A stretch of 64,000 nt of DNA. Origin: a virus. Lineage: Duplodnaviria; Caudoviricetes. Below the pieces are notes generated by a model. That model did not search any database, was not told the origin of the DNA, and was given only the letters and a program-made list of their open reading frames with translations. Positions 7,244 through 63,717 of this stretch are shown here, piece by piece. The first letter of the stretch is position 1, and the number at the start of each line of letters is the position of its first letter. The stretch is from IMG/VR virus record IMGVR_UViG_3300021959_007005; one strand, given 5' to 3'. Position numbers and translations under genes: made by a program.

Positions 7244-7248
7244 GTTTT

Positions 7249-7491: not shown

Positions 7492-7651
7492 TATCTACAT
7501 AAACGCATTCTATTGTTTCAGATTTGTCGTTTACCATAACTGATGCTTTTTTTAAGTTTACTGTACACAGTGTTTCAGCTGTAAACGTATCTAAATGATG
7601 ATACCTTACACCTTGATCTTCCATGAATACAAACCACATTAATAACCACAT
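7481..7651 (-). CDS. Hypothetical 56-aa protein (not in supplied track)
   Basis: Hand-translated MWLLMWFVFMEDQGVRYHHLDTFTAETLCTVNLKKASVMVNDKSETIECVYVDIKG; starts 1 nt after the stop of 7653-8135. Confidence 0.6.
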   Translation of the reverse strand: MWLLMWFVFMEDQGVRYHHLDTFTAETLCTVNLKKASVMVNDKSETIECVYVDIKG

Positions 7652-21587: not shown

Positions 21588-21918
21588 TGGGTGCAGTAGT
21601 TTACCAAGCACCTTAAATGTATCAACAAAACCAGTTACAAAGCCAATATTGGTATTGCCTGATGTTGACGAAGTATCAATGCGCCGCATTGAATGGATTG
21701 TTATTAATGAAGAAAATGTAGATGATGAGTTAGCTAAACTTAAAGAAAAAAACATTCCAACTGGTTTGTATGCATTAACTGGTCAAGGTTATGAAAATTT
21801 AGGTCTGAACTTTAGTGACATACGTGCTCTAGTACAACAACAGCAAGCAATTATTGTAGCATATAAAAATTATTATATTGAAGCAGAAGAAACTCTAGAC
21901 AACTCAGTAGCAAAGTAA
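21529..21918 (+). CDS. Outer-membrane spanin lipoprotein (Rz1-like)
   Basis: Probable start MAYNLTKSVLGFGLVMTLLSGC (lipobox LSGC); Pro-rich N-region; overlaps the i-spanin 3' end. Confidence 0.75.
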   Translation: MAYNLTKSVLGFGLVMTLLSGCSSLPSTLNVSTKPVTKPILVLPDVDEVSMRRIEWIVINEENVDDELAKLKEKNIPTGLYALTGQGYENLGLNFSDIRALVQQQQAIIVAYKNYYIEAEETLDNSVAK

Positions 21919-22769: not shown

Positions 22770-22788
22770 AGTAATAGGAGTAAGTTTA

Positions 22789-46658: not shown

Positions 46659-46919
46659 ATGCCTACACGATCATTTAGTAGTTCAGAAATTACAAAACTA
46701 AAGCAATTAATGAGCGAAGGAATTCAAGTAACTAGTGAAGTTGATGCATTAAAAGAAGGTCTTAAAGATACAGTTAAGGCTATTGCTGAAGAAATGGATA
46801 TGAAACCAGCACTACTTAATAAAGCAATCCGAATTGCTTACAAAAATGAGTTTGCTCAAACACAGGATAACTTTAGCCAAGTTGAAGAAATTTTAGCGGC
46901 TGTAGGTAGAGACAATTAA
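46659..46919 (+). CDS. Small dsDNA-binding protein (T4 DsbA/GapR-like)
   Basis: Helical KLKQLMSE...LKEGLKDTVKAIAEEMDMKPALLNKAIRIAYK pattern. Confidence 0.6.
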   Translation: MPTRSFSSSEITKLKQLMSEGIQVTSEVDALKEGLKDTVKAIAEEMDMKPALLNKAIRIAYKNEFAQTQDNFSQVEEILAAVGRDN

Positions 46920-47617
46920 TGCTCGACTTAAAAGTTATTGAAGTAGAACATTACACAGACAAATTATTTAGAATACAAACAGAAAGACCCCGTAGTTTTA
47001 GATTTACTGCGGGGGAGTTTGTTATGATAGGTTTAGAAGATGCACCTAATAGGGCATACAGTATTACCAGTGGTCCATATGATGACTACATTGAGTTCTA
47101 CAGTATCAAAGTACAAGATGGACCGCTAACAAGTAAACTACAGCATATTCAAGTAGGCGATACTATTCGTGTAGGTGAGAAGCCAACAGGTACACTTATA
47201 CTTGCTAACTTAGAGCTAGGCGGGCACCTAGTAATGATGGCAAGTGGTACTGGTATTGCTCCGTTTATTAGTTTACTACGTGAACCAGAAACATATGACT
47301 TGTTTGAGAACATTACAGTAACATGGACCACTAGGCTACATGCTGAACAAGACTGTTACCGAGACTTCTTGAATGAGATGCCAATTGAATACATCAGCAC
47401 AGTTACACAAGAGCCAGCTGAACTACAAGGACGTATTCAAAAGTTTATGGCAGATGGTACAGTACAGATTGACAATCCTGCTGAACAGCGTATAATGTTA
47501 TGTGGAAGTGTGGCATTTAATAATGATTTGAAAGAACACTTTAACAGTCTCGGATTTAATGAGGGAAACAAACGCACACAAGGTACGTTTGTACAAGAAA
47601 GGGCGTTTGTTAGTTAA
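46919..47617 (+). CDS. fpr: Ferredoxin/flavodoxin-NADP+ reductase
   Basis: RFTAGEFVMIGL, RAYSI, EFYSIKVQDGPLTSKL, GTGIAPFISL, MLCGS. Confidence 0.93.
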   Translation: MLDLKVIEVEHYTDKLFRIQTERPRSFRFTAGEFVMIGLEDAPNRAYSITSGPYDDYIEFYSIKVQDGPLTSKLQHIQVGDTIRVGEKPTGTLILANLELGGHLVMMASGTGIAPFISLLREPETYDLFENITVTWTTRLHAEQDCYRDFLNEMPIEYISTVTQEPAELQGRIQKFMADGTVQIDNPAEQRIMLCGSVAFNNDLKEHFNSLGFNEGNKRTQGTFVQERAFVS

Positions 47618-50298
47618 TGTATGTAGATGCACATTTTGATCGTAACAAAGATATTATCTATGTTGCTGAACGTATTAATGGCCATAGAGAGTATCGAGAG
47701 TACCCGCCAAGCTATATGTTTTATTATAAAGACCAACGTGGGAAATATGAAAGTATTTTCGGAGACAAACTCTCACGGTATTCAACTACAAATGGCAAGG
47801 CATTTAAAAAAGAAAAGAAAATGTATGGTGGACAAACATTATTTGAAAGTGATGTTAATCAAGTTTTCAAATGTTTGGAAAACAACTACTTGGGGAAAGA
47901 ACCTCCTAAACTAAACACTGCATTTTTTGATATTGAAGTTGACTTTGACAAAGATGTAGGATTTGCACCGCCAGAAGATCCGTTTAATCCTGTTACTGCT
48001 ATTGCTGTTAACTTAAATTGGATTGGCAAGACAATATGTATTGCTTGTAAGCCTGATACACTCACTAAAGAAGATGCACAAGAAATTTGTGATAGATTTC
48101 CTGACACACTTCTTATGGATACAGAAGAAGAACTGCTTCGAACATTTTTAGAGTTAATTGAAGACGCAGACGTAATGAGTGGATGGAATAGTGAAGGATT
48201 TGATATTCCATATTTGGTAAACCGCATTACACGTATACTTGGAAAAGATTACACACGTAAATTTTGCTTGTGGGATCAACTACCAAAGCGCAGAGAGTTT
48301 GAAAAATATGGCAAGGCACAAGAAACATATGATACAATTGGTCGATTGCATTTGGATTATATGCAACTATATCAGAAGTACACATATCATGAAATGCATA
48401 GTTATGCACTAGACGCAATTGGCGAATATGAGCTCAATGAGCGTAAGATTGCATATTCAGGCACATTAGATGCATTGTATAATAATGACTTTGAAACTTT
48501 TATTGATTACAACCGTCAAGATGTGGAATTGTTAGTTAAACTAGATGCAAAGTTGCAGTTTATTGACTTAGCAAATGTTATTGCACATGATAACACAGTA
48601 CTAATACAAACCACAATGGGCGCAGTTGCAGTTACTGACCAAGCTATTATTAATGAAGCACATCGCAATGGACTTATTGTTCCAGATAAACAACATGATA
48701 AAGTACAAAAGCATTATCCACAAACAACACAAGCCGCTGGTGCATACGTTGCAACACCAGTTAGAGGACGGCATGAATGGATTGGTAGTATGGATTTAAA
48801 CAGTCTGTATCCAAGTATTTTACGTGGACTTAACTTGAGTACTGAAACAATTGTTGGGCAAATTAGACATACATTAACTGTACCACTTCTACAAGAGTTT
48901 AAATGGGAAGCAGCAAGGGCTTGGGAAGGTAAATTCGCCACACCTGAATATGAGCTAGTAATGGCTAAAGATACTAAAACACAGTTATGGATTGACTTTG
49001 AAAATGGTGAAGAGTTAATGGCAACTGGCGCTGAGATATACCAGATCATTTTTGAAAGTGGACAGCCTTGGGTTATATCAAGTAATGCTACTATTATTAA
49101 ACAAGATAAAAAAGGCATCATTCCTGGCTTATTAGAGCGTTGGTATGCTGAACGTAAAGTATTACAAAAGAATGCCAAAGAAGCAAAAGGTGTTGATGGT
49201 GAAAAATTTACATATTGGGATAAACGACAGCTAGTTAAAAAGATTAACTTGAACAGTTTGTATGGTGCGTTACTTAATCCAGGCAGTAGATTTAATGATC
49301 CACGCATGGGGCAATCAACAACACTAACTGGCAGAACTATTGCTAGACATATGGGAGCTAAAGTAAATGAACTATTTACAGGAGAGTATGACCATGTCGG
49401 GGCCAGCATTATATATGGAGATACTGATAGTATCTATTTTAGTGCGTATCCTATATTCAAGGAACAGATAAAAAATGGAGAGTTTGAATGGGATAAAGAT
49501 AAGGTTAGTGAATTATATGACACAGTATGTGAGCAAGCTAACGTAACCTTTCCTGATTACATGGCAAATGCACATAATGTGCAAGACCGTGAGCAGGGAA
49601 AAATTATTGCCGCTGCTCGAGAAATGTGTGCGTTATCAGGTATCTTTATCAAGAAGAAACGCTATGCAATCCTAGTATATGACAACGAAGGGTTTAGAGA
49701 AGATTATGATGATAAACCTGGTAAAATTAAAGCCATGGGATTGGACTTAAAACGTAGCGATACTCCTCCATTTATGCAAGATTTTTTGAGTGAACTACTT
49801 TTAAAAACACTTACTGGTGTCCCTAATGAAGAACTTATTGAAAGAATTGTTGAATTCAGACGTGAGTTTAGAGACAAGCCAGCATGGGAGATTGGCACAC
49901 CTAAGCGTGTTAATAAGCTCACATATTATAATAATTTAGAGTGGGATAAAAAAGGCAGCTACAAAGGTAAAGCAAACATGCCAGGGCATGTTCGTGCCGC
50001 AATTAACTATAATCGTCTACGTGATATCAATAGTGATAAGTTTAGCTTAGATATTATTGATGGTATGAAAACTATTGTATGTAAATTAAAACCAAACCCA
50101 ATGGGATTTACTAGTATCGGTTATCCTACAGATGAAGGCAGAATTCCAGATTGGTTTAAGGAATTACCATTTGATACTGATCTTATGGAGGAGACTATTA
50201 TTACTAAAAAAATAGAAAACTTACTAGGAGTAATAGATATTGACTTATCTAAAGCAGAGGACAAAACTACATTTGAGAGTTTGTTTGATTTTGGATGA
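47617..50298 (+). CDS. Family B DNA polymerase (T4 gp43-like)
   Basis: Exonuclease FFDIEV / SGWNSEGFDIPY / YNRQDV; polymerase DLNSLYPS, KINLNSLYG, YGDTDS, KKRYA, GLDLKRSD. Confidence 0.97.
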   Translation: MYVDAHFDRNKDIIYVAERINGHREYREYPPSYMFYYKDQRGKYESIFGDKLSRYSTTNGKAFKKEKKMYGGQTLFESDVNQVFKCLENNYLGKEPPKLNTAFFDIEVDFDKDVGFAPPEDPFNPVTAIAVNLNWIGKTICIACKPDTLTKEDAQEICDRFPDTLLMDTEEELLRTFLELIEDADVMSGWNSEGFDIPYLVNRITRILGKDYTRKFCLWDQLPKRREFEKYGKAQETYDTIGRLHLDYMQLYQKYTYHEMHSYALDAIGEYELNERKIAYSGTLDALYNNDFETFIDYNRQDVELLVKLDAKLQFIDLANVIAHDNTVLIQTTMGAVAVTDQAIINEAHRNGLIVPDKQHDKVQKHYPQTTQAAGAYVATPVRGRHEWIGSMDLNSLYPSILRGLNLSTETIVGQIRHTLTVPLLQEFKWEAARAWEGKFATPEYELVMAKDTKTQLWIDFENGEELMATGAEIYQIIFESGQPWVISSNATIIKQDKKGIIPGLLERWYAERKVLQKNAKEAKGVDGEKFTYWDKRQLVKKINLNSLYGALLNPGSRFNDPRMGQSTTLTGRTIARHMGAKVNELFTGEYDHVGASIIYGDTDSIYFSAYPIFKEQIKNGEFEWDKDKVSELYDTVCEQANVTFPDYMANAHNVQDREQGKIIAAAREMCALSGIFIKKKRYAILVYDNEGFREDYDDKPGKIKAMGLDLKRSDTPPFMQDFLSELLLKTLTGVPNEELIERIVEFRREFRDKPAWEIGTPKRVNKLTYYNNLEWDKKGSYKGKANMPGHVRAAINYNRLRDINSDKFSLDIIDGMKTIVCKLKPNPMGFTSIGYPTDEGRIPDWFKELPFDTDLMEETIITKKIENLLGVIDIDLSKAEDKTTFESLFDFG

Positions 50299-50527: not shown

Positions 50528-51247
50528 ATGAGAGATTATCTTCTCGATATTGTAAAACATACACGAAGTGTAGGCAACATTGATGCAGTTAAAGTTACTG
50601 ACGGATTAGTTGTCGAAGCAAAAGACGACGATAATAAGGTAATTGTGAAAGCAACTTATAAGTCAGCCCCAACAGAATTAGACGGTGTACTAGGGCTACC
50701 TAACTTGGATAAACTAAACATTATCCTTAATATTCCTGAGTACACAGAAAATGCAAAAATTAGTGTTGAAAATCGTGAACGCAATGGAGAAAGCACACCA
50801 TTTAGTTTGAAGTTTGAAAATGCAGGTGGCGACTTTAAAAATGACTTCCGCTTTATGAGTAAGGAACTAGTTACCCAACGTATTCCAGAAGTAAGATTTA
50901 AAGGTGCTAATTGGGATGTAGAGTTTGAACCACATAGTGCAAGCGTACAACGGTTTAAATTCCAAAGCCAAGCAAATAGTGAAGAAAGTGTGTTTATTGC
51001 AAAAACTGAAGACACCAATCTAAAGTTTTATTTTGGCGATGATAGTGGACATACTGGAAACTTAGTATTTCAGGCAGACATATCTGGATCACTAAAACAA
51101 AGCTGGAAATATCCAGTTGCAGAGGTATTAAACGTATTAAATATCAATGGTGACATTACTATGCGGTTTAGTGATAGTGGGGCACTTAAAATTGATGTAG
51201 ACAATGGCATGGCCATTTATGAATACATCTTTCCGGCACAAAGTTAA
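50528..51247 (+). CDS. Sliding clamp / polymerase processivity factor (gp45-like)
   Basis: 239-aa two-domain beta/alpha pattern directly after the polymerase; clamp loader also in the window. Confidence 0.65.
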   Translation: MRDYLLDIVKHTRSVGNIDAVKVTDGLVVEAKDDDNKVIVKATYKSAPTELDGVLGLPNLDKLNIILNIPEYTENAKISVENRERNGESTPFSLKFENAGGDFKNDFRFMSKELVTQRIPEVRFKGANWDVEFEPHSASVQRFKFQSQANSEESVFIAKTEDTNLKFYFGDDSGHTGNLVFQADISGSLKQSWKYPVAEVLNVLNINGDITMRFSDSGALKIDVDNGMAIYEYIFPAQS

Positions 51248-51684
51248 TGATAGTTGGGTTCACATGTAGTGTATTTGACCTGCTACATGCAGGTCATATT
51301 GCAATGCTACGTGAAGCTAAAGATCATGTTGATTACTTAATAGTTGGGTTACAAACTGACCCAACTATTGATAGACCAGACGAAAAGAATAAACCAGTAC
51401 AGAGTTTAGTAGAAAGATACGCACAATTAGCAGCTACTAAATATGTTGATGAAATAATACCTTATCAAACTGAACAGGACTTAACTGACATACTTGAAAT
51501 GTATCATATTGATATTCGAATCCTTGGAGAAGAATATCGAGAAAAAGATTTTACTGGAAAAGAAGTTTGTCGCAAAAGAGAAATCGAACTATATTTTAAC
51601 AAACGAGATCATAGGTTTAGTACTAGTGATCTTAGGAAGAGAGTGGAAAATGCACCCTGCCAAAAAAGAAGCTCGCCTAAATAA
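51247..51684 (+). CDS. Cytidylyltransferase (TagD/glycerol-3-phosphate CTase-like)
   Basis: FDLLHAGHI (HxGH), LIVGLQTD, VDEII, FSTSDLRKR. Confidence 0.88.
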   Translation: MIVGFTCSVFDLLHAGHIAMLREAKDHVDYLIVGLQTDPTIDRPDEKNKPVQSLVERYAQLAATKYVDEIIPYQTEQDLTDILEMYHIDIRILGEEYREKDFTGKEVCRKREIELYFNKRDHRFSTSDLRKRVENAPCQKRSSPK

Positions 51685-51838
51685 ACTACGTGAACAACAT
51701 AAAAATCTTGACATCAGGATCCAAAAGTTATATAATACAACTAATAGTGAACGTACCTTAAAAACCCTTAAAATTGAGAAATTAGATCTCAAAGATAAAA
51801 TTACCGAATTGGAGAATAGAAATGGTAAAAAAAATTAG
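51650..51838 (+). CDS. YdcH/DUF465-like coiled-coil protein
   Basis: Start reassigned to 51650; RLNKLREQHKNLDIRI...LKIEKLDLKDKI. Confidence 0.65.
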   Translation: MHPAKKEARLNKLREQHKNLDIRIQKLYNTTNSERTLKTLKIEKLDLKDKITELENRNGKKN

Positions 51839-51992
51839 AGTTATTGAACCAGATATTGAAAATACTGGAGATGCAGAAAATATGACAGAGCTAGCAAAAT
51901 CTATGGATTGGAAGCTATGGGAAATCTTGCAAATTATGCAGAGATTAGAAAAGAAAATTGGGGCTGATGGTTTAGTTCTCGACGATGGCTGA
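51822..51992 (+). CDS. Hypothetical 56-aa protein
   Basis: Hand-translated MVKKIRVIEPDIENTGDAENMTELAKSMDWKLWEILQIMQRLEKKIGADGLVLDDG; GGAG SD. Confidence 0.6.
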   Translation: MVKKIRVIEPDIENTGDAENMTELAKSMDWKLWEILQIMQRLEKKIGADGLVLDDG

Positions 51993-52431
51993 TAATTATG
52001 AACCCTACGAAGCATATATGCGACGGAGATCAAAAGAAGAGGATGCAAAAATGAATAATGCTAAACGTAGTATTTGGGTAACTTTCACTAAAGAAGGTAT
52101 CCATAAGTATCCAGCAGCATTAGACGATCCTGCACTAGCAACAGGAGATGAGTATGATGTAAGTTTCTTAGGATACCCACATCGACATACTTTTCATTTT
52201 AAAGTACAAATACAAGTAACACACAACGATAGAGATATTGAATTTATTCAATTCAAGCGTTGGTTAGAGAATCTTTATAAAGAAGATATTCTCGAACTAG
52301 ATTACAAGTCATGTGAAATGATTGCAGATGACTTATATCTACACATCAACAGCAAATACCCCGGCCGGTTTGTTGTCATTGATGTCGCCGAAGATGGCGA
52401 AAACGGCTGTCAAATTGTTTATCCAGCATAA
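51985..52431 (+). CDS. QueD-like (6-pyruvoyltetrahydropterin synthase T-fold) protein
   Basis: IWVTF..EGIHKY...HRHTFHFKV...DIEF...SCEMIA...V.EDGENG: T-fold His motif and terminal E; clustered with folE and a TGT-like gene. Confidence 0.65.
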   Translation: MADNYEPYEAYMRRRSKEEDAKMNNAKRSIWVTFTKEGIHKYPAALDDPALATGDEYDVSFLGYPHRHTFHFKVQIQVTHNDRDIEFIQFKRWLENLYKEDILELDYKSCEMIADDLYLHINSKYPGRFVVIDVAEDGENGCQIVYPA

Positions 52432-52440
52432 AGGAATATA

Positions 52441-52764
52441 GTGGTGAATAATGTAGGTACAGATATTCGAGACCTTCGTCAAGGTCGTGTGAGTATTAAT
52501 GATATCAAGTTTGACTTGATTAAGATTATCGAACCACATGATGGGTGGTTAGCAACAAATGAAGGAAGTGATAAACTTGTACGTCATCTTTTTACTCGTT
52601 ATTTGAGTGACTTAAGATACGCTGGTTTAGTAAATGACTTTAATATTAGAAGTGCTATACGTAATAATGCAATTACATATGATGTTTCTGTTAAAATGAG
52701 TCAAGAACGTAGTGATAAGAAACTCAAAATTCATGTGGGTGTATATCAGAAACGAGTAAAGTAA
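52441..52764 (+). CDS. Hypothetical protein, paralogue of 56838-57125
   Basis: Shared SINDIK.DLIKIIEP.DG and AITYDVS.K...KLKIHVG.YQ. Confidence 0.7.
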   Translation: MVNNVGTDIRDLRQGRVSINDIKFDLIKIIEPHDGWLATNEGSDKLVRHLFTRYLSDLRYAGLVNDFNIRSAIRNNAITYDVSVKMSQERSDKKLKIHVGVYQKRVK

Positions 52765-54275
52765 TGACAGCGACCCGTATTAACTTAACAGAACGTAATA
52801 AGGACTATGCAGTATTTTTGCCTAGTATTAGTACATTTTATAATAATTATATTGCTAAACAACGAGTAACCGGTGGACAGCACATTTTGCCAGACCGCAT
52901 GCCAGATGGTTTTGAAACTGGCATGGAAGGCATGAACTTTCTCAATGAGAAGGATGCTTACTATAGTTACAAGTGGGGGTTATACTCCGCAGGACATGCC
53001 CAACTTAATTTAAGCAAAGCTAATGATTCAGATGCAATGGTACAAGGACGTGATCGTGACAAAACGTTTATGCTCTGTGACAGTGGCGGGTTTCAGATTA
53101 TTAAAGGTGTTATCCAGTGTGATTGGGATAACTTTAAAACTGATGACAGTTTACGTCAGAAGATCTTAAACTGGTTGGAACACACAGGTGACTATAGTAT
53201 GATCCTGGATATTCCAACACTGGCGGCGGATCCTACATTTAGTGGACGTACTGGTATTACTAGTTTTAATCAGTGTTTGGAGTTTACAGACTTTAATGTA
53301 AACTGGTTTAAGAAACACCGCAAGTATCAAACAAAGTATCTTAATGTTATGCAAGGCCGTAATTGGGCTGAAGCAGAACATTGGTATGAAACTATGAAGC
53401 ATCATGATTTGGAAGGCTTTGCGTTTGGTGGTAGTGCTAAGAACGATATTAATATTGTACTACGAACACTTATTAAGATGCGTGATGATCAGCAACTTGA
53501 ACGTGGCAAACGTGATGTACTACACTACTTGGGCATTGGTAGACTGGAATGGGCAACAGCCTATACAGCAATCCAACGTGCATTGCGTGAGCATGTAAAC
53601 GAAGATGTTCAAGTAATGTTTGACTGTGCATCGCCTTTCTTAGCAACAGCAAATGGTACAATGTATACCCAACATGTACATAAAAATGACCGCTTTGGTT
53701 ATGTTATGGATAAAGCAATGGACAATAAAGCACTAAGCGGTAGTAAGTTGGCATTTCCCTTTGGTAGTCCAATTGGCGAAAGACTTAACTTAGGTGACAT
53801 TTGTCATTATGCACCTGGCATGCTGAATAAAATTGGCAAAGAAGGGAAAACTAGTTGGGATAGTTTTACATACATGCTGTTAATGTCACATAATGTATAC
53901 AGTCATATTGAAAGTGTACAACGTGCAAACGCACTTACTGATATGGTAAACACAACAGTAAGTACAGACTACAGACAGTGGCGTAAGCTAAAAGCGACCA
54001 GTAAAGATGAAGTGTTTAGTCCGTATGTACCACGTAATATTGTTTATATGACGCAATTTATTGATCAACTGTTCCGTAGTGAAACGCCAATGCAAATGTT
54101 AGACGAAGCGGAGTCTATGCTTGCTAACTTTAGTGGACAGAAACTACAAACATCAAGTGCTGGAAGTTTTAGTAACTTGTTTGAAGTTAACGATGTGGTT
54201 TCAGAAGAATCAAATGAAATGACAGCTGAACAAGAAGCTGAGGCTGAAAACTTCTTAGAAACATTGGAGGTATAA
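52764..54275 (+). CDS. dpdA: TGT-fold transglycosylase, DpdA-like (7-deazaguanine DNA insertion)
   Basis: CDSGGFQ, MILDIP, VMQG, FAFGG, LHYLG, FDCASP and a C-terminal HN follow the TGT catalytic order; lacks the CxCxxC of tRNA-TGT; clustered with folE and the queD-like gene. Confidence 0.7.
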   Translation: MTATRINLTERNKDYAVFLPSISTFYNNYIAKQRVTGGQHILPDRMPDGFETGMEGMNFLNEKDAYYSYKWGLYSAGHAQLNLSKANDSDAMVQGRDRDKTFMLCDSGGFQIIKGVIQCDWDNFKTDDSLRQKILNWLEHTGDYSMILDIPTLAADPTFSGRTGITSFNQCLEFTDFNVNWFKKHRKYQTKYLNVMQGRNWAEAEHWYETMKHHDLEGFAFGGSAKNDINIVLRTLIKMRDDQQLERGKRDVLHYLGIGRLEWATAYTAIQRALREHVNEDVQVMFDCASPFLATANGTMYTQHVHKNDRFGYVMDKAMDNKALSGSKLAFPFGSPIGERLNLGDICHYAPGMLNKIGKEGKTSWDSFTYMLLMSHNVYSHIESVQRANALTDMVNTTVSTDYRQWRKLKATSKDEVFSPYVPRNIVYMTQFIDQLFRSETPMQMLDEAESMLANFSGQKLQTSSAGSFSNLFEVNDVVSEESNEMTAEQEAEAENFLETLEV

Positions 54276-54276
54276 A

Positions 54277-55044
54277 ATGCGTGATATTGTTTTAGTAACT
54301 GGTGGATTTGATCCGTTACACTCAGGACATATTGCTTATTTTAAAGCAGCTCGGGAACTAGGTGATATCTTAGTTGTCGGGCTGAATAGCGACAGTTGGC
54401 TTACCCGTAAAAAAGGTAGACCATTTATGTCTTGGAATGAACGTAGTAGTATTATTGGCGAACTTGAGTGTGTTGATGAGGTTATTGGATTTAACGATGA
54501 TGATGGCACCGCTGTTGATGCAATTTCAGAAATGATTTCAGAATATCCGAATGATAATATTATATTTGCCAATGGCGGAGACCGTAAAAAAGGCACAACA
54601 CCAGAACTAGAATTTGCTAAACAATTCGATAACGTTACATTTGAGTTTGGTGTTGGTGGTGAAGATAAAAAGAACTCTAGTAGTTGGATACTAAAAGACT
54701 GGAGCCAACCTACTACAAAAAGAGCATGGGGTACTTATACAGTACTTCACAATGGCCCAGGCTGGGCAGTAAAAGAACTAGCATTTGGTACTGAAACTCC
54801 ACTAAGTGATCAACGACATTTTATTCGTAGTGAACATTGGCATGTAGTTGAAGGCACTATACAAATGGATTTAGAGTTTGACAATGGCGAAAAATCTAGT
54901 ACAATATATACATCAGGCGAAAGTATTGACATTCCTGTTTTAACTTGGCACAAAGCGACTAACATTGGTAGCACAACAGCAAAAGTTATTGAAGTTTGGA
55001 TGGGCGATGAATTAACAGAAGATGATATTGAAAGAAGAGATTAA
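54277..55044 (+). CDS. Bifunctional nucleotidyltransferase (RfaE/HldE-type) plus cupin (mannose-6-P isomerase-like)
   Basis: TGGFDPLHSGH, VVGLNSD, FANGGDR, SSSWIL; cupin R.WG.Y...QRH..RSEHWHVVEG. Confidence 0.85.
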   Translation: MRDIVLVTGGFDPLHSGHIAYFKAARELGDILVVGLNSDSWLTRKKGRPFMSWNERSSIIGELECVDEVIGFNDDDGTAVDAISEMISEYPNDNIIFANGGDRKKGTTPELEFAKQFDNVTFEFGVGGEDKKNSSSWILKDWSQPTTKRAWGTYTVLHNGPGWAVKELAFGTETPLSDQRHFIRSEHWHVVEGTIQMDLEFDNGEKSSTIYTSGESIDIPVLTWHKATNIGSTTAKVIEVWMGDELTEDDIERRD

Positions 55045-56105
55045 TGAACACAATTTGGATTATACCAATTGAGCCTATTGACCAGCGTTATACTAAACAG
55101 TGGTACGATAATATTCCACTTACATTAAAAGCAAAAATTGCAGAACGTGAACTTAATTATTTTGTACAAACTATTGATGGTGAAGATTTTAAACCTGATG
55201 TGAGAACTGAAGGTGCCTTTCTTGACTTTGGTGCAACTAATGTATACAAAGCAACACAAGCGGCAGAAGTAAGTCGTATGTTTAGCAATGGCAAAGTTAA
55301 AGCAGGTGACAAATTTCTGATAACTGATGCTTGGAACTTTATCATCACTCCAATCAAATACATGAGTGACTTATTAGATATTCCAGTAGAGATACATAGT
55401 ATTTGGCATGCTGGTGCATATGATCCTACAGACATACTTGGCTATAAAATGAGTAAGCCTTGGCCTTCACATGTTGAAAAAAGTTGGTATTATAGTAGTG
55501 ATTATAATTACTTTGCAACAAATTTCCACAAAAATATGTTTTTACGCAACTTGGATATTCCAGTAGAAGATCATGGAAGAGCAATACGTAGTGGGCAACC
55601 GCACGAGCTTATTGTTGATAGTTTAGTAAAGCATCAAAATACACCAAAGAGTGATAAAATTATGTGGCCACATAGGTGGAATGATGATAAGCAACCGGAT
55701 ATTGCATTGGCATTAGCACAAGATTTTGATATGGTTATTACACAAAAAATGAACCTTGACAAATCACAGTACTATGCTAAAATGGGAGAAAGTAAATTAA
55801 TTTTTAGTTGTGCATTACATGAAAACTTAGGTATCAGTGTTATGGAAGCAGTACTAACTGGTGCTATTCCTATTGTACCAGATCGTGCAAGCTATAGTGA
55901 GATGTATTTGCCAGAATTTAAGTACCCATCTGAATGGACTGCAAGTTTTGAATCATACAAACAACATAGGGATTCACTAGTAGGATTTATAAAAGAAAAA
56001 CTAATCATGTTTGACAAATACCAAGACGTATTGGTTAAGCAACGTAACATTCTTATTGAAAATTATCTAAATAGCAGTGTTATGATAAACAACATACTAC
56101 AATAA
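55044..56105 (+). CDS. GT-B fold glycosyltransferase (GT4-like)
   Basis: C-terminal HENLGISVMEAVLTGAIPIVPDRASYSEM (E-x7-E motif); WPHRWNDDKQP. Confidence 0.75.
   Translation: MNTIWIIPIEPIDQRYTKQWYDNIPLTLKAKIAERELNYFVQTIDGEDFKPDVRTEGAFLDFGATNVYKATQAAEVSRMFSNGKVKAGDKFLITDAWNFIITPIKYMSDLLDIPVEIHSIWHAGAYDPTDILGYKMSKPWPSHVEKSWYYSSDYNYFATNFHKNMFLRNLDIPVEDHGRAIRSGQPHELIVDSLVKHQNTPKSDKIMWPHRWNDDKQPDIALALAQDFDMVITQKMNLDKSQYYAKMGESKLIFSCALHENLGISVMEAVLTGAIPIVPDRASYSEMYLPEFKYPSEWTASFESYKQHRDSLVGFIKEKLIMFDKYQDVLVKQRNILIENYLNSSVMINNILQ
56020..56035. promoter_or_regulatory. Orphan copy of the early-promoter dyad core inside the GT gene, upstream of folE
   Basis: ACCAAGACGTATTGGT is identical to the cores at 11678 and 27699; TTGACA at 56011. 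Confidence 0.45.
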
Positions 56106-56121
56106 AAAGGAACATAGTATA

Positions 56122-56811
56122 ATGACAAAGACTTCCGATTTGATTAAGCAACGACTTAAAGATCAAAATATTAGACATTGGGCTGGTGACAACATTAGCT
56201 CAGTATTAGAAGATGGTGATAAACAAAAACTTATTGATGAAGCGACAACTAGTTTTGAAGATGTATTAGACTCATTAATTATTGACAGGGATAATGACCC
56301 AAATAGTCATGGAACTGCCAAGCGTCTTGCTAAGATGTATTTTAATGAATTAATGAGTGGACGGTATGAGCCAGCACCTAGTGCAACAGCATTTCCAAAT
56401 GATAGTGCTGAACGTTATGAAGGTATGCTAGTTGTACGTAGTGAATTAAGAAGCATGTGTTCACATCATCATCAGCCAGTAGCAGGAGTTGCATATATTG
56501 GCATTATCGCCTCTAATAAATTAATTGGACTAAGTAAGTATACAAGAATTGCACAGTGGTGTGCAAGACGTGGAACTTTACAAGAAGAGTTGGCAACCGA
56601 CATTGCTCGAGAAATTATGAAAGCAACAGAAAGTGAAAATGTAGGGGTCTACATTCAGGCTACCCATGGCTGTTGTGAAAATCGAGGTATTATGGCACAT
56701 AGTAGTTTAACACAAACTACAGTACTTAAAGGTAGCTTCCATAATGATCCTGGATGCAAAAAAGAATTCATGGATAATATTAAACTACAACAAGAATATG
56801 CTCCAAGATAA
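56122..56811 (+). CDS. folE: GTP cyclohydrolase I
   Basis: RSMCSHHHQP, GLSKYTRI, QEEL, ATHGCCENRG. Confidence 0.95.
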   Translation: MTKTSDLIKQRLKDQNIRHWAGDNISSVLEDGDKQKLIDEATTSFEDVLDSLIIDRDNDPNSHGTAKRLAKMYFNELMSGRYEPAPSATAFPNDSAERYEGMLVVRSELRSMCSHHHQPVAGVAYIGIIASNKLIGLSKYTRIAQWCARRGTLQEELATDIAREIMKATESENVGVYIQATHGCCENRGIMAHSSLTQTTVLKGSFHNDPGCKKEFMDNIKLQQEYAPR

Positions 56812-56837
56812 ATGTAAACAATTAATAAGGAATAAAG

Positions 56838-57125
56838 ATGTATACCCGTTTAAGCATTAACGATATCAAATGGGATCTAATAAAGATCATTGAACCATTT
56901 GATGGTATCCTCGAAAATAAGCCACGTGGAGAAAAGTCGATCCGTCGACTTTTTGAAGCGTATCTTAAAGACTTACGTTCAGATCAACAAATATCAGATT
57001 TTAACGTATATAGTAACATTCGTGACACAGCGATTACTTACGATGTTTCTATAAAAGTGGCATCAGATAGATCGCCACGAAAACTAAAAATCCATGTTGG
57101 CACATATCAACACCCATGGATATAA
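56838..57125 (+). CDS. Hypothetical protein, paralogue of 52441-52764
   Basis: Shares the motifs listed for 52441-52764; AAGGA SD. Confidence 0.7.
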   Translation: MYTRLSINDIKWDLIKIIEPFDGILENKPRGEKSIRRLFEAYLKDLRSDQQISDFNVYSNIRDTAITYDVSIKVASDRSPRKLKIHVGTYQHPWI

Positions 57126-57197: not shown

Positions 57198-58274
57198 ATG
57201 AAACTATTAAAACTATTGGCTGCTACACTAGTAGTGGCAGCTGTAGGCGTTTCTGCAAGTGCAGATGCTCCTAAGGATAAAGCAAAAGTCGCATTTATTT
57301 ACGTTGGCCCAACAGGTGATCACGGTTGGACATATCGTCACGATATTGGTCGTCAGCAAGTAGAAGAAGCATACGGAGATCGTGTCGAAACTACGTTTGT
57401 TGAAAGTGTAGCAGAAGGTGCTGACGCTGAACGTGTAATGACACAAATGGCACTACAGGGCGCAGACATTATTTTTGCGACATCATTTGGATATATGGAT
57501 CCAATAATGAACGTAGCAAAGAAGTTTCCAAACGTAAAGTTTGAACATGCTACAGGTTATAAATCATCTGACAACGTTGCTAACTATGGTTTGAAACTAT
57601 ACCAAGCAAGACACGTACAAGGTGTTGTAGCAGGTATGATGACAAAAACAAACAAAATTTGTTATATTGCTTCATTCCCAATTCCAGAAGTTATGCGTGA
57701 GATTAACACATTCTTCTTGGGCGCACGTAAGTATAATCCAGATGTAGAACTATCAATTGCGTGGGTTTACACATGGTATGATCCAGGCAAAGAAAAAGAT
57801 GCGGCTGTGGCTCTGATCCAACAAGGTTGTGACATTGTAGCACAACACACTGACTCACCTGCTCCGCTACAAGCGGCAGAACAAGCAGGTGTACTTGGTT
57901 TTGGACAAGCAAGTGATCAAATGAAGTTTGCTCCTAACGCACAATTGACAGCAACTATTGACAATTGGGGTCCTTACTACATCGACAAAGTAGGACAAGT
58001 ACTAGATGGTACATGGGAAACAGGCGATTACTTTGGACATATGAACGAAGGTGCTGTACAAATGGCACCATTTGCTAATATGCCAGCTGATGTACAAGCA
58101 GAAGCACAACGTGTAAAAGATGCTATTAGCGCAGGCGAGTTGTTTGGATTTACAGGTCCAATTAACAAGCAAGACGGAACAGTGTTCCTGAAAGAAGGTG
58201 AAGTAGCAACGAGACAGCAACTAGACACTATGATGTTTTATGTCGAAGGCATCACATCACAGGTACCTGGTTAA
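57198..58274 (+). CDS. BMP-family (basic membrane protein/PnrA-like) ABC substrate-binding protein
   Basis: Signal peptide; VAFIYVGPTGDHGWTYRHDIGR, IIFATSFGY, KFEHATGY, SFPIPEV.REIN.F.LG, WYDP.KE. Confidence 0.92.
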   Translation: MKLLKLLAATLVVAAVGVSASADAPKDKAKVAFIYVGPTGDHGWTYRHDIGRQQVEEAYGDRVETTFVESVAEGADAERVMTQMALQGADIIFATSFGYMDPIMNVAKKFPNVKFEHATGYKSSDNVANYGLKLYQARHVQGVVAGMMTKTNKICYIASFPIPEVMREINTFFLGARKYNPDVELSIAWVYTWYDPGKEKDAAVALIQQGCDIVAQHTDSPAPLQAAEQAGVLGFGQASDQMKFAPNAQLTATIDNWGPYYIDKVGQVLDGTWETGDYFGHMNEGAVQMAPFANMPADVQAEAQRVKDAISAGELFGFTGPINKQDGTVFLKEGEVATRQQLDTMMFYVEGITSQVPG

Positions 58275-59137
58275 TGATTCCAGTAATTGATTTACAAGCA
58301 TCAGACGCTTTAGATCGCATTGACGAAGCCTACACAACAGTAGGCTTCGCAGTGTTTACAAATGCGTTAACTGACACACATCAACAAGACATCAAGTCTT
58401 GGCAAGAACAAATGAAAGCATTCTTTGAATTGCCAATGGATACAAAACAAAGCTATCCTTACAACGCAGATACTAACTTAGGTTACAGTATGGTAGGTGA
58501 CGAAAATGTAGACCCTACAGCACCCAAGGATATTAAAGAAAGTTTTAATTATAACAATACACGTATGCCAGATGATCTTTGGCCTACTGAACTAAATGGA
58601 TTTAAATCAACAGCATTACAAAGTATAGATATTGCCGATAAACTTACACTAAAGATATTAGAAAAGTTTGATACTATCCTAGATAGCGGAACTACACTAG
58701 TAGATTCACATTTACAACCTTTTAATACAACAAGGGTCATTCATTATCCAGCATATGATGGACCAGTACAAGATAAACAAATGCGTATAGGAGAACATAG
58801 TGACTACGGTACTATTACTTTACTTTGGCAAATTAACGATGTACCAGGACTCGAAGTTCAAGACCTTGATGGAACATGGCATGCAGTACCATATGAAAAG
58901 GATGCAGTAATTTGTAACATAGGCGACTTGTTACAACGATGGACTAATGACTATTTCAAGTCAACCAAGCACAGAGTTGTAAACAGTCACATACATCAAC
59001 AACGCTATAGTATGCCACACTTTGTAGATCCTACACCGGGTACTATTGTTGATAATCTGCGTTTCCACGAAGCGCCTAAATATCCGCCAATTGAATCAAA
59101 AGAGTATTTGATGTGGCGCCTAGCACAGAGTTATTAA
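58274..59137 (+). CDS. Isopenicillin-N-synthase-like 2OG-Fe(II) oxygenase
   Basis: IPVIDL, GEHSDYGTITLL (HxD), NIGDLLQRWTND.FKST.HRV, RYS. Confidence 0.9.
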   Translation: MIPVIDLQASDALDRIDEAYTTVGFAVFTNALTDTHQQDIKSWQEQMKAFFELPMDTKQSYPYNADTNLGYSMVGDENVDPTAPKDIKESFNYNNTRMPDDLWPTELNGFKSTALQSIDIADKLTLKILEKFDTILDSGTTLVDSHLQPFNTTRVIHYPAYDGPVQDKQMRIGEHSDYGTITLLWQINDVPGLEVQDLDGTWHAVPYEKDAVICNIGDLLQRWTNDYFKSTKHRVVNSHIHQQRYSMPHFVDPTPGTIVDNLRFHEAPKYPPIESKEYLMWRLAQSY

Positions 59138-59138
59138 T

Positions 59139-59654
59139 ATGAAACAATATATAAAAAGTTACATGGACTTTCCTAAAGACGGTATTGATTTTAAATGTAC
59201 CGCAAGTTTATGTGCATCACAGGATGGGTTTGAACTAGCCAACAATTTTATATACAGTAATTTATTGAAGTATTGTCCAGTAGATAAAATTATTGGTATT
59301 GATGCTAGAGGTTTTATCTTTGCAAGTGTGTTTGCACACAGGACTAGAGGACCACTTGTGCTTGCACGTAAACCAGGGAAGTTGCCAGGTAGTACTATTA
59401 GTCGTGAGTATGAACTAGAGTACGGAACCAACGAACTAGTAATGCAACGAGATAGTTTTGATAAGGGCGACACTGTTCTTATTATAGATGACTTAATAGC
59501 AACTGGTGGAACTATGAAAGCAGTTATTGAAATGTGTGATGAAATAGAAGTAACCATAAAAGCAGTTGCATGTATAATGGACTTACCTAAACTTGGCGGA
59601 AGTGATTATGTTAAGAATCGTAACATACCATTTTACGCAGGTGTAAATTATTAA
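59139..59654 (+). CDS. apt: Adenine phosphoribosyltransferase
   Basis: DFPKDGIDF, GIDARGF, RKPGKLPG, YELEYG, IIDDLIATGGT. Confidence 0.92.
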   Translation: MKQYIKSYMDFPKDGIDFKCTASLCASQDGFELANNFIYSNLLKYCPVDKIIGIDARGFIFASVFAHRTRGPLVLARKPGKLPGSTISREYELEYGTNELVMQRDSFDKGDTVLIIDDLIATGGTMKAVIEMCDEIEVTIKAVACIMDLPKLGGSDYVKNRNIPFYAGVNY

Positions 59655-60860
59655 ATGGCAAACTTAGTAGTAATAGGAACCCAATGGGGCGATGAAGGCA
59701 AAGGCAAAGTAGTTGATTTACTAGCAGAACAAGCAGATGTTATAGTACGTTTTCAAGGAGGACATAACGCAGGGCATACACTGGTAATAGGTGACAAAGT
59801 TTTTAAACTTAGCTTACTGCCCAGCGGTATAGTAAGAGAAGATAAAGTTTCGGTTATTGGTAACGGTGTTGTATTGAATCCTTGGAAACTATTAGAAGAG
59901 ATTGAACTAGTACAGTCACAAGGTGTAAACATTGATCCTAGTAGATTGATGATTGCAGAAAACACTCCGCTAATTTTACCCTATCACCAAGCATTAGATC
60001 AGTCAAGAGAAGAAGTAACTGATAAAAAAATCGGTACTACTGGCAGAGGCATTGGTCCTGCATATGAAGATAAAGCAGGAAGACGTGCAATTAAAGTAGG
60101 AGATCTTAGAGATGATGAACTACTCAAACATAGACTAGCAATAGCCGCAGAGTATCACGACTTTGACCAACAACAGTTGTTTAATCAGCTAGCACATATC
60201 AAAAAACATGTATTACAATATGTAAATGATGTACCACTTTATCTAAATCAAAAGACTGACTTAGGATTTAATATATTATTCGAAGGCGCACAAGGAAGCA
60301 TGCTAGATGTAGACTTTGGCACTTATCCTTATGTAACAAGCTCAAACACACTAGCAGGTATGGCTAGTATAGGCTCAGGGGTACCGCATAATAAGATACC
60401 AAATGTAATTGGTATAACAAAAGCATACACAACTCGAGTTGGCGAAGGGCCAATGACGACTGAATTATTTGATGATGTTGGAGAGCATCTAGCAAGTGTA
60501 GGTAAAGAAAAAGGTACAGTAACTGGTAGAAGCAGACGCTGTGGATGGTTTGATGTATCACAAGTAAAACGAACATGTATGTTAAATGGTGTTACTGGCA
60601 TAGCATTAATGAAAATAGACGTACTCGATAAACTCGAGACTATTAAGATTTGTACTGACGTACACAACGGAATACCAGTGTATGAAGAGCTACCTGGTTG
60701 GTGTACTAGTACAATAGGTATAACTGATTATTCAGATTTACCAAGACTTGCTCAAGAGTATATTAACCGTATTGAGCAATTAACACAAACCGAAGTAGTT
60801 TTGATATCAACTGGACCAGAAAGAGATCAAACTATTTTATTACAAGATTCTTTCTTTTAG
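59655..60860 (+). CDS. purA: Adenylosuccinate synthetase
   Basis: QWGDEGKGK, RFQGGHNAGHT, IGTTGRGIGPAY.DK, FEGAQG..LD.DFGTYPYVTSS, GTVTGRSRRCGWFD. Confidence 0.95.
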   Translation: MANLVVIGTQWGDEGKGKVVDLLAEQADVIVRFQGGHNAGHTLVIGDKVFKLSLLPSGIVREDKVSVIGNGVVLNPWKLLEEIELVQSQGVNIDPSRLMIAENTPLILPYHQALDQSREEVTDKKIGTTGRGIGPAYEDKAGRRAIKVGDLRDDELLKHRLAIAAEYHDFDQQQLFNQLAHIKKHVLQYVNDVPLYLNQKTDLGFNILFEGAQGSMLDVDFGTYPYVTSSNTLAGMASIGSGVPHNKIPNVIGITKAYTTRVGEGPMTTELFDDVGEHLASVGKEKGTVTGRSRRCGWFDVSQVKRTCMLNGVTGIALMKIDVLDKLETIKICTDVHNGIPVYEELPGWCTSTIGITDYSDLPRLAQEYINRIEQLTQTEVVLISTGPERDQTILLQDSFF

Positions 60861-60894
60861 AGAAAGAAATAACACTAACAGGGAGAAATATATT

Positions 60895-61515
60895 ATGTTA
60901 GGATTTTTTAAAGATATTGACAGAAGCATGTTGCTGAAACTAGTAGCACTACATGTAATTGTTATCGTAGTAAGTAACGCACTAGTAAGTATTCCAGTAG
61001 AAATTTTTGGAATTAAACTTACCTGGGCTGCATTTACATTTCCGTTAGTTGTACTAGCAACTGACTTAACAGTACGAATGTTAGGTAAAAACATTGCACG
61101 TTCAACAATTGCGGCAGCTTATCCGTTGGCAATTATTGGCTCAATTTTAGTTGTAATGGCGGAGGGTGCACCAAGTAGTGTAGCAATGCGTATTGGTTTA
61201 GCTAGTGCAACAGCATATGCAGTTGGCACAATGTTGGATGTATATGTATTTCAATACCTACGTGAAAACTTTATGAAGCATTGGTGGATTGCGCCAGCAG
61301 TATCAACTGTAGCGGCAAACGTCATTGACACATACACATTCTTTTGGGTTGCGTTCAACAACAGTGCAGACGAATATATGGCTGCAAACTGGGTAGAGAT
61401 CGCAGGATCACAAGTTGTGATTAAGATTGCAGTAGGACTTATTATCTTCCTACCAGCATACGGTGTGCTATTACGTTACTTAAATGGTAAACTTTCAGAA
61501 GAAGACGCCGAATAA
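60895..61515 (+). CDS. yhhQ: Queuosine-precursor (preQ0/preQ1) transporter, YhhQ/VUT family
   Basis: SN.LV..P...G..LTW.AF.FP...LATDLTVR..G...AR; AS..AY..G..LDV.VF..LR...WW.AP..ST...N..DT..FF..AF, matching the YhhQ pattern as I recall it. Confidence 0.88.
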   Translation: MLGFFKDIDRSMLLKLVALHVIVIVVSNALVSIPVEIFGIKLTWAAFTFPLVVLATDLTVRMLGKNIARSTIAAAYPLAIIGSILVVMAEGAPSSVAMRIGLASATAYAVGTMLDVYVFQYLRENFMKHWWIAPAVSTVAANVIDTYTFFWVAFNNSADEYMAANWVEIAGSQVVIKIAVGLIIFLPAYGVLLRYLNGKLSEEDAE

Positions 61516-62471: not shown

Positions 62472-63164
62472 ATGTATTTTATCAGTGCGCCATTTGGCAA
62501 TTATTTACAGTACACAAACTTTCTAAGTGGCAAACCAATAGTCAGTGTTACTGGAACATTTACGGTGAAGCCACGTCCTGGACTAGCAAAACAAATTATA
62601 AAAACACTTAGGTATACTAGAACAGGCTGGCGCAACAAACTAGGTTTGCGTAACCCAGGAATATTTAAGGGGTTGGACAACACTGCACCACACAATGTAA
62701 TGAGTATTGCTAGTTTGGAACCAAATGATTGGCGTATACTATATGAAATAGTGCCCAAGCATCAGAATGTAGAACTTAACATAAGTTGCCCAAATGTAGA
62801 TGAACATCCAGACTTAACTAAAGCATTTGCAAAAGATCAACGCTTCTGGTGCATTGTAAAAGTACCACCAACTATAACAAACAAACAGATTGACAAAATA
62901 GTTAAACTAGGCTATAATCAAATACATGCAAGCAATACTATTCCAACAGCGAAAGGTGGACTTAGTGGTGATGTAATTGTACCACACACTTTGAGAATAC
63001 TAGAATACATAAAAAGTACACATCCTCATGTTGAAGTTATCGCAGGCGGCGGAGTAAAAGATAAAGCTAGTGTTGATAGATATATTAACGCTGGAGCAGA
63101 TCATATTAGTATAGGCAGTGTATGTTTTACTCCTTGGCGTATTAAAGGAATTATAAATGATTAA
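62472..63164 (+). CDS. Dihydroorotate dehydrogenase-like FMN enzyme (compact form)
   Basis: NKLGLRNPG, ELNISCPN, VKVPP, SNT, GGLSG, IAGGGV, AGAD.I.IGS. Confidence 0.8.
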   Translation: MYFISAPFGNYLQYTNFLSGKPIVSVTGTFTVKPRPGLAKQIIKTLRYTRTGWRNKLGLRNPGIFKGLDNTAPHNVMSIASLEPNDWRILYEIVPKHQNVELNISCPNVDEHPDLTKAFAKDQRFWCIVKVPPTITNKQIDKIVKLGYNQIHASNTIPTAKGGLSGDVIVPHTLRILEYIKSTHPHVEVIAGGGVKDKASVDRYINAGADHISIGSVCFTPWRIKGIIND

Positions 63165-63717
63165 GAAACATTATTACAGTTGGCAAGATATTGAAAATAT
63201 GTGTAGTAGTATTGTATTACAAATGTATGCTGACAATTGGCGTCCGGATTATATTGTAGGACTTACTCGTGGAGGGAATGTACCTGCTACTATTATTAGT
63301 AACATGACAGGCATTCGTTGTGAAGCACTTAAAGTAAGTTTGCGAGATGATGAAGTAGGACCAGAAAGTAACCTATGGATGTCTGAAGATGCATTTGGAT
63401 ATAACGATCCAGACAAATCTGGTATTACTGGTGCACGATGGGATATTAAACTTCGTAAGAATATTCTTATTGTAGATGATATCAATGATACAGGTGCAAC
63501 ATTCAATTGGATTATAAAAGATTGGCAAGCAAGTTGTTTCCCCGAAGAAGAAAATGGTTGGAATAGTGTATGGAACAATAATGTTCGATTTGCCACATTA
63601 ACAGACAATTTGGCTAGTGAATTTACAGAGCATTGTGCTTACACATGTCACGAAATTAATAAAGCAGAACAAGATGTTTGGCTAGTTTATCCTTGGGAAA
63701 ACGTAGGAGAATATTAA
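63157..63717 (+). CDS. Type I phosphoribosyltransferase (purine salvage, Gpt/Hpt-like)
   Basis: YIVGLTRGG.VPA; ILIVDDINDTGAT; WLVYPWE. Confidence 0.85.
   Translation: MIKKHYYSWQDIENMCSSIVLQMYADNWRPDYIVGLTRGGNVPATIISNMTGIRCEALKVSLRDDEVGPESNLWMSEDAFGYNDPDKSGITGARWDIKLRKNILIVDDINDTGATFNWIIKDWQASCFPEEENGWNSVWNNNVRFATLTDNLASEFTEHCAYTCHEINKAEQDVWLVYPWENVGEY

Follow-up and report, generated by a model that had tools for sequence, protein, structure and literature searches.

Does a viral gene cluster in which enzymes of 7-deazaguanine metabolism are interleaved with a glycosyltransferase put a sugar on the deazaguanine base? This question is raised by positions 51247-56811 of a 64,000-nucleotide stretch of DNA (below, the window) from the Caudoviricetes (Duplodnaviria) virus record IMGVR_UViG_3300021959_007005. 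A preliminary description of this block had named six genes, encoding a TagD-like cytidylyltransferase, a QueD-like protein, a DpdA-like enzyme of the tRNA-guanine transglycosylase (TGT) type, a nucleotidyltransferase-cupin fusion, a GT-B glycosyltransferase (GT) and the GTP cyclohydrolase FolE, and had suggested that together they produce a glycosylated deazaguanine in DNA. The six calls are right in kind, and the genes form a single tightly packed block on the plus strand. The gene identities, folds, catalytic residues and conserved linkage agree with a 7-deazaguanine DNA-modification cluster, and the block is with high probability a DpdA-like/DpdL module for this purpose. The module is a variant of the known phage 7-deazaguanine systems, found widely in marine viromes and also in phages that have been cultured. 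That the GT glycosylates the deazaguanine, either as the free base or in DNA, is given a chance slightly below even.

The block is part of an unbroken run of abutting or overlapping plus-strand genes (50528-57125), directly 3′ of the genes for a family B DNA polymerase (PolB; 47617-50298, +; Pfam DNA_pol_B and DNA_pol_B_exo1) and an Smr protein. All seven module open reading frames (ORFs) described below are on the plus strand. Searched by megablast against the phage collection, the 5.6-kb block gives no match.

The gene at 52764-54275 encodes a 503-aa protein without a Pfam match, and no TGT is retrieved from the PDB by sequence searches with the single protein or with its profile. The relationship is evident from the predicted structure. 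Based on 43 diverse homologs, AlphaFold gives a model with a predicted local distance difference test score (pLDDT) of 90, and every one of the top 50 Foldseek matches in the PDB is a tRNA-guanine transglycosylase. Realignment with VIA superimposes 294-318 residues on the human, archaeal and bacterial TGT structures (Z 20.9, rmsd 4.5-4.7). Residues D106 (in DSGGFQ), D149 and D287, which are among the few that are invariant across the 43 homologs, align with D89, D143 and D264 of Escherichia coli Tgt (profile alignment, hhalign probability 87.8), the equivalents of D102, D156 and the nucleophile D280 of the Z. mobilis enzyme. The histidine of the HN motif, H376, is retained and nearly invariant in the family. 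Profile comparison relates the family to DpdA of Acidovorax phage ACP17 (hhalign probability 96.7) and weakly to DpdA3 (CGPG_00065) of Cellulophaga phage phiST (probability 57.6, E 1e-4, 116 columns only). Cellulophaga and Campylobacter phages are not reached by tblastn. The protein also has a C-terminal helical extension and an FxxLF motif. It is therefore regarded as a DpdA-like enzyme, enlarged and very divergent but plausibly catalytic, and is placed in no named subfamily. Its relatives in metagenomes amount to 6721 proteins at 90% clustering, among 8000 candidates scored, and the family comprises 880 representative clusters at 50% identity, all unannotated.

The QueD-like protein (51985-52431, 148 aa) has no Pfam match, and its profile retrieves neither QueD nor 6-pyruvoyltetrahydropterin synthase (PTPS) from the PDB. 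It contains the motif L62-x3-H66-R67-H68-x-F70, of which all five residues are invariant in 25 homologs. This is the signature LxxxHRHxF of DpdL, found in place of the CxxxHGH motif of QueD (Cui, Hutinet et al., NAR 2023, PMC10516641). DpdL was described as a QueD paralog that co-occurs with DpdA, FolE, QueD and QueE in the absence of QueC, and was proposed to decarboxylate 7-carboxy-7-deazaguanine (CDG) to 7-deazaguanine, the base that fully replaces guanine in phiST DNA (PMC10516641). The profile of the 148-aa family matches DpdL of phiST (CGPG_00067) with an hhalign probability of 99.1 (E 6.7e-19) and the ACP17 homolog with an E-value of 8.1e-50, and conservation among the relatives is striking, with, e.g., 70% identity between the window protein and its homolog in Sinorhizobium phage Phosso. 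A role as the QueD of the pathway is rejected, as ACP17 contains a canonical QueD as well as a homolog of the 148-aa protein and the two do not match (probability 6.5). What had been called QueD-like is thus indeed a QueD paralog, not the pathway enzyme itself; signature and profile alignments identify it as DpdL. Because the gene is DpdL, the expected base is of the CDG or 7-deazaguanine type. Of the bases anticipated for this cluster, CDG and preQ0, the former stands in the form of a CDG derivative or 7-deazaguanine, and preQ0 is dropped, since DpdL is present and QueC is not found in relatives and comparator phages.

Deazaguanine synthesis starts with FolE, a GTP cyclohydrolase I (56122-56811; PF01227, E 3.5e-39, 134.5 bits versus a cut-off of 27), for which the FolE equivalogs are the best matches in NCBIfam, yet below their cut-offs. 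The reported absence of queE and queC from the window is borne out by phmmer searches with phage QueE and QueC, which give zero matches there. A canonical QueD is present in two relatives (G004 and G005), with none in this window, and divergent QueE genes lie 6-10 kb downstream of the module in close relatives. QueC was not found in six genomes, i.e., the complete 364-kb relative G004, PA5oct, ACP17, X1, Phosso and phiST. The combination of DpdL, DpdA, FolE, QueD and QueE without QueC is the pattern seen in the relatives and comparator phages.

Conservation of the module was assessed by comparison of 80 related viral contigs (identity of the TGT-like protein 47-99%), of which the ORFs were labelled by phmmer. 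Loci with at least 5 kb of downstream and 2.5 kb of upstream sequence were considered flank-sufficient (n=47, the window and 46 contigs). The TGT-like protein, DpdL and the GT are found together in all 47, as is a gene for a 239-aa protein immediately 5′ of the module; FolE is present in 46/47, and QueE lies inside the flank in 27/47. The gene order varies between subclades, and the tightest adjacency of the GT is to dpdL (median 736 bp between the two starts). In the phage collection, clear homologs of the GT occur in cultured phages only where DpdL is also encoded, and always within ~3 kb of dpdL. The PA5oct group contains a block of TGT-like protein, GT, DpdL and QueE; ACP17 one of QueD, FolE, DpdA, GT, DpdL and QueE; and the Xanthomonas phages X1/BUDD have FolE and, further on, GT, DpdA, DpdL and QueE. 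In Phosso the clamp, DpdL, GT, FolE and QueE genes are grouped, with the TGT-like gene 170 kb away, and in BCSR5 the GT and DpdL genes are ~3 kb apart. The linkage of the GT to the dpdA-like and dpdL genes, a test on which the glycosylation proposal had been staked in advance, is thus conserved in 47/47 loci and in five cultured lineages.

The GT (55044-56105, 353 aa) has no Pfam match at E 0.01, PF00534 (Glycos_transf_1) included, and no match in a PDB sequence search. One homolog (P0205) carries a precomputed PF00534 assignment, and the PHROG glycosyltransferase phrog_4356 is matched with an E-value of 0.0027. The predicted structure (pLDDT 86, predicted TM-score 0.85) shows the two Rossmann domains of the GT-B fold, and Foldseek retrieves BshA, PimA, MshA, GtfA and other members of family GT4 with E-values of 1e-9 to 1e-7. 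The EX7E motif of GT4 enzymes corresponds to E260-x7-E268 in the C-terminal domain and is invariant in 24 homologs, and the N-terminal, acceptor-side half is unusually conserved. The model, the Foldseek matches, the EX7E motif and the co-occurrence identify the protein as a GT4-type GT-B glycosyltransferase and a core member of the module. Among its structural neighbours in Swiss-Prot the tRNA-queuosine mannosyltransferase (QTMAN) ranks fifth; the α- and β-GT of T4 are absent among the top 50 fold matches. Two genes considered as counterparts of the GT, the 'primase' gene 3′ of the TGT-like gene in Phosso and a neighbour gene in Vibrio phage 2.275.O, show no similarity to it.

Two further genes of the module encode nucleotidyltransferases. 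The first (51247-51684) matches PF01467 (E 3.9e-16) and, under the cut-offs, TIGR02199 (E 5.9e-21) and TIGR01518 (E 6.2e-19). The second (54277-55044) is a fusion of a nucleotidyltransferase (PF01467, E 1.1e-13) with a cupin of the type found at the C-terminus of mannose-6-phosphate isomerase (PF01050, E 8.2e-20). Both are about equally similar to the heptose-1-phosphate adenylyltransferase domain (domain II) of HldE and to the glycerol-3-phosphate cytidylyltransferase TagD, below both cut-offs, and are considered accessory enzymes, the first for sugar- or polyol-phosphate activation. Their earlier designation as dedicated nucleoside diphosphate-sugar or polyol enzymes is correct as far as the gene calls are concerned, but they do not belong to the core: the first gene is present in 15/47 and the fusion in 16/47 of the flank-sufficient loci, about a third of the clade. 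In other subclades this place is occupied by a UDP-glucose/GDP-mannose-dehydrogenase-like gene (15/47), or by a class I aldolase-like gene or a radical S-adenosylmethionine (SAM) gene. Among pyrimidine-glycosylating phages that use different sugars, the transferase stays fixed and the sugar-nucleotide genes around it change (PMC13326640). By analogy, the changing sugar genes around one GT would fit a variable sugar on a constant acceptor.

A number of observations weigh against the reading that this acceptor is the deazaguanine. With respect to the module as a whole, the match of the 503-aa protein to TIGR00449 is sub-threshold (E 6.5e-4, 18.7 bits versus a cut-off of 47.6), PF01702 is touched by 4 of its 43 homologs at E 0.0036 or weaker, and the canonical CxCxxC zinc motif of TGT enzymes is missing, with a single Cys (C347) in the region. 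The window ends before the position at which QueD and QueE are expected in this genome, and the decarboxylation of CDG by DpdL is a prediction (PMC10516641). About seven groups of DpdL-encoding phages have no GT, including phiST with its plain deoxynucleoside of 7-deazaguanine (dDG); the GT therefore supplements the DpdL pathway, and the basic modification does not depend on it. The structural match of the GT to QTMAN is no better than that to other GT4 enzymes. Moreover, an ordinary acceptor hydroxyl is present neither in 7-deazaguanine nor in CDG. Attack by a free, nucleophilic C7, giving a C-glycoside, would be one chemically possible route. Glycosylation of C7 after decarboxylation is attractive in that it would explain the coupling of dpdL and GT, and it is without precedent in GT4; the C-glycosyltransferases known to us are inverting GT1 enzymes, none of them GT4.

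The missing hydroxyl and the production of dDG by phiST without a GT also speak for a different explanation, in which the DNA contains plain 7-deazaguanine or CDG, as in phiST, and the GT merely travels along and acts elsewhere, for instance on a protein of the virion or the replisome, on a molecule of the host envelope or on a different nucleobase. This explanation is rather doubtful, as the GT gene is found beside dpdL in the five cultured lineages and the 47/47 marine loci despite the shuffled gene order, and as every clear GT homolog in the phage collection comes from a DpdL phage. The genes for hydroxylated pyrimidines point in the same direction. No ThyA homolog is found in ACP17, X1 and the complete relative G004, all of which contain the GT, nor among the window genes scanned, and high-scoring ThyA genes are present in PA5oct, Phosso and the relatives G003 and G006. 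In the absence of a ThyA-type hydroxylase in ACP17, X1 and G004, a ThyA-made hydroxylated pyrimidine would not be the GT acceptor in these genomes, which weakens hydroxymethyl- and hydroxypyrimidines as candidate acceptors.

The GT and DpdL might also act on a small molecule, either a pterin derived from FolE and a PTPS-like enzyme, glycosylated as by the cyanobacterial tetrahydrobiopterin glucosyltransferase, or a free glycosylated deazapurine that is kept out of DNA. DpdL is a T-fold protein of the PTPS/QueD family with a reaction that is only predicted, the GT gene has dpdL as its closest partner (by the median distance given above), and two tetrahydrobiopterin glucosyltransferases (PDB entries 5zes and 9v0l) are among the structural matches of the GT. 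Nevertheless, this possibility is considered quite unlikely: the pterin glucosyltransferases do not outrank dozens of other GT4 matches, the cluster is always associated with a transglycosylase and QueE, whose end products are deazaguanines and not pterins, and no role for a pterin glycoside is known in phages.

The glycosylation of deazaguanine in DNA further presupposes that the TGT-like enzyme acts on DNA, to which the surroundings of its gene and the C-terminal tail of the protein are relevant. The 239-aa protein encoded upstream of the module (50528-51247, +) is a probable sliding clamp of the gp45/PCNA type. Its feature neighbours in the Atlas, taken as a lead only, are gp45/PCNA sliding-clamp clusters with PF09116, and hhalign relates it with an E-value of 8.3e-51 to a Phosso protein annotated as sliding clamp, of which the gene lies 3′ of the Phosso polymerase gene. 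No sequence match in the PDB is obtained with the clamp profile. The PA5oct homolog, annotated as 'structural protein', is a probable sliding clamp as well. PolB of the window terminates in TTFESLFDFG (50266-50295), a T4-type clamp-binding tail, and a PolB-like FxxLF(D/E) motif is present in residues 467-475 of the TGT-like protein (GSFSNLFEV, 54160-54190), followed by an acidic helix. An Fxx[LM]F motif occurs within the last 70 residues of 12/43 family members; shuffling predicts 1.3, and none of 200 shuffles gave more than 5. The C-termini of PolB and the TGT-like protein of Vibrio phage 2.275.O read DLFDW and DLFGW, respectively. Complex prediction of the clamp with the TGT-like tail (residues 450-503) gives a score of 0.59, with 0.00 for the best control, contact agreement between runs of at least 55% and partner pLDDT values of at least 49. 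In the calibration set, 51 of the 78 solved complexes and 2 of the 108 mismatched pairs came up to the mark. Passes at or below 0.60 were obtained for only 5 solved complexes (of 78) and for every one of the 4 passing mismatches. The predicted contact thus lends weak support; solved clamp-peptide complexes exist, so the pass may reflect likeness only.

A base-exchange enzyme tethered to the clamp is suggested by the tail motif that PolB and the TGT-like protein have in common. In addition, the TGT-like gene is located in a replication-gene context in every lineage, and its homolog in Vibrio phage 2.275.O adjoins queF, yhhQ, queC, a glutamine amidotransferase gene and folE. PA5oct DNA withstands G-containing restriction enzymes, and END nucleases, which sense hypermodified DNA, attack it (PMC12191111). 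Because of the clamp motif, the probable clamp upstream and the replication-gene context, DNA at the fork is favoured over tRNA as the substrate. That the enzyme instead modifies host or phage tRNA, with the cluster reprogramming translation, agrees with its fold, which is that of the tRNA-guanine transglycosylases, but is very improbable in view of the position of the gene, which in all lineages has PolB and clamp on one side and further replication genes on the other, the PolB-like clamp motif, the G modification of PA5oct DNA, the homology to the recognised phage DpdA of ACP17, and the full preQ1 gene set next to the Vibrio 2.275.O homolog, as in known DNA-modifying phages.

From these data we infer a route in which FolE, together with QueD and QueE encoded elsewhere in the genome as in the relatives, would make CDG from GTP, and which in the absence of QueC would stop short of preQ0. 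DpdL would act on CDG, the most likely reaction being loss of the carboxyl group to give 7-deazaguanine, as found in phage phiST. Guanine in DNA would then be exchanged for the DpdL product by the divergent enzyme of TGT fold, which would probably be tethered to the replisome by the upstream-encoded clamp, and the GT4 enzyme would add a sugar to the deazaguanine, with either the free base prior to its insertion or the inserted base as acceptor. The two nucleotidyltransferases of this subclade would supply a special activated sugar, and the genes found in other subclades may give a different one. In its full extent the proposal is a tentative one: the marine jumbo-phage clade, which is common worldwide, and the cultured PA5oct-like, ACP17, X1 and Phosso phages may replace guanine by a sugar-bearing 7-deazaguanine, with DpdL freeing C7, the GT4 enzyme attaching a subclade-specific sugar, possibly as a C-glycoside, and the exchange being performed by a new, clamp-riding DpdA subfamily that lacks the zinc site.

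Among known systems, the DpdA3/DpdL system of phiST, which produces dDG, resembles the module in the presence of FolE, QueD and QueE, the absence of QueC, a DpdL with the LxxxHRHxF signature, and a distant TGT-like transglycosylase encoded beside polymerase genes. It differs in the size of the transglycosylase (259 aa, versus 503 aa with a clamp-motif tail here) and in the absence of a GT4 enzyme, which is a fixed member here, where sugar-nucleotide genes are also found inside the cluster. ACP17 and X1 have QueD, FolE, DpdA, a GT homolog, DpdL and QueE in one block near the polymerase gene, but their DpdA proteins (424-437 aa) are closer to the Vibrio phage DpdA group, and their GT is only 26-32% identical to that of the window. 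The ACP17 dpdA and dpdL genes have been named and tested (PMC10516641); the word 'glycosyl' does not occur in that paper, and the GT is not discussed. Expression of dpdL and dpdA of phiST and ACP17 in E. coli gave no dDG, which the authors tentatively ascribe to a lack of further enzymes (PMC10516641).

Pseudomonas jumbo phage PA5oct (Wroclawvirus) contains a block of PolB, the clamp homolog, the TGT-like protein (36% identity), GT (37%), DpdL (64%) and QueE. Unlike the window it has no cytidylyltransferase or cupin genes in the block, and its host is a soil and clinical gammaproteobacterium. No report on the chemical nature of the PA5oct DNA modification was found in the literature searched. 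QTMAN (GTDC1), a GT-B enzyme of family GT4, sets a precedent in that it glycosylates a 7-deazaguanine derivative within a nucleic acid; however, its acceptor is the cyclopentenediol hydroxyl of tRNA queuosine, which the gene set of the window cannot make. The DNA glycosyltransferases of T-even and RB69-type phages share the GT-B fold and decorate a modified phage DNA base after replication, and the sugar-nucleotide genes vary between these phages. Their acceptors, in contrast, are 5-hydroxymethyl- and 5-hydroxycytosine, made by ThyA homologs, of which ACP17, X1 and G004 have none.

To our knowledge, eight 7-deazaguanine derivatives have been described in phage DNA, none with a sugar, and all glycosylated DNA bases known to us are pyrimidines. 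The suggestion that a glycosylated deazaguanine in DNA would be without precedent holds for the literature covered: no such base was found in reports on bases of this kind, on the chemistry of PA5oct and ACP17, or in follow-ups of the DpdL work. A glycosylated purine analogue would, if present, constitute a new class of DNA hypermodification, with consequences for restriction, for CRISPR, for modification-sensing defences such as END nucleases, and for the sequencing of environmental phage DNA. Glycosylation by the GT would also offer an explanation for the failure to rebuild dDG formation with ACP17 dpdA and dpdL alone, and for the guanine modification of the therapeutic-candidate phage PA5oct. 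The clamp-type motif of the transglycosylase suggests a route to complete, replication-coupled base replacement. The existence of cultured phages with the same gene set makes the glycosylation reading directly testable.

Two small conserved proteins are encoded in and next to the module. The 107-aa product of 52441-52764 and the 95-aa product of 56838-57125 (+) are paralogs with the shared stretches SINDIK.DLIKIIEP.DG and KLKIHVG.YQ. Homologs are found in 40 related loci, mostly between dpdL and GT. No family was found for these proteins, and their neighbours in the Atlas, clusters of phage sheath C-terminal domains, are unconvincing. Two short ORFs (51650-51830 and 51822-51990) are located between the cytidylyltransferase gene and dpdL; the first encodes a DUF465-like coiled-coil protein, of which a homolog in the relative L004 carries PF04325.

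A purine-handling cassette (57198-61515 and 62472-63717) follows the module and is found only in the window and its 99% relative. It encodes a Bmp/PnrA binding protein, a 2-oxoglutarate oxygenase similar to isopenicillin N synthase, two phosphoribosyltransferases, PurA, a YhhQ transporter and a dihydroorotate dehydrogenase-like protein. The transporter (60895-61515, +; PF02592, E 5.6e-25) belongs to the YhhQ/Vut_1 family of queuosine-precursor importers; it is seen in only 6 sources among the labelled contigs and is regarded as accessory. The combination of phosphoribosyltransferase and PurA recalls the logic of toyocamycin and tubercidin synthesis for deazapurine nucleotides. A role of the gene at 59655-60860 as PurZ, in 2-aminoadenine formation, was rejected, as it scores 553 bits with the PurA equivalog (cut-off 402) versus 133 bits with PurZ (cut-off 300).

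Further upstream, a ferredoxin-reductase-like FAD/NAD oxidoreductase is encoded directly 5′ of PolB (46919-47617), and DnaJ and a ClpB-like double-AAA chaperone are encoded as neighbours at 21918-25032. In close relatives a full-length SAM synthetase (MetK, E 6e-124; L006, 18191-19276) is encoded two genes 3′ of QueE and may feed the radical-SAM step. In Phosso (L093) a small gene annotated as 'glycosylase' (7011-7544) lies between the clamp homolog and dpdL. Finally, large TGT-like proteins are also present in Vibrio phage GR7B (L091, 6602-8218) and Pseudomonas putida phage Voja-6 (L092, 6857-8227), both phages of ~200 kb. No deazaguanine synthesis genes are visible near these genes, which lie among primase, sigma-factor and RecA/UvsX genes and hint at a wider, replication-linked transglycosylase superfamily.

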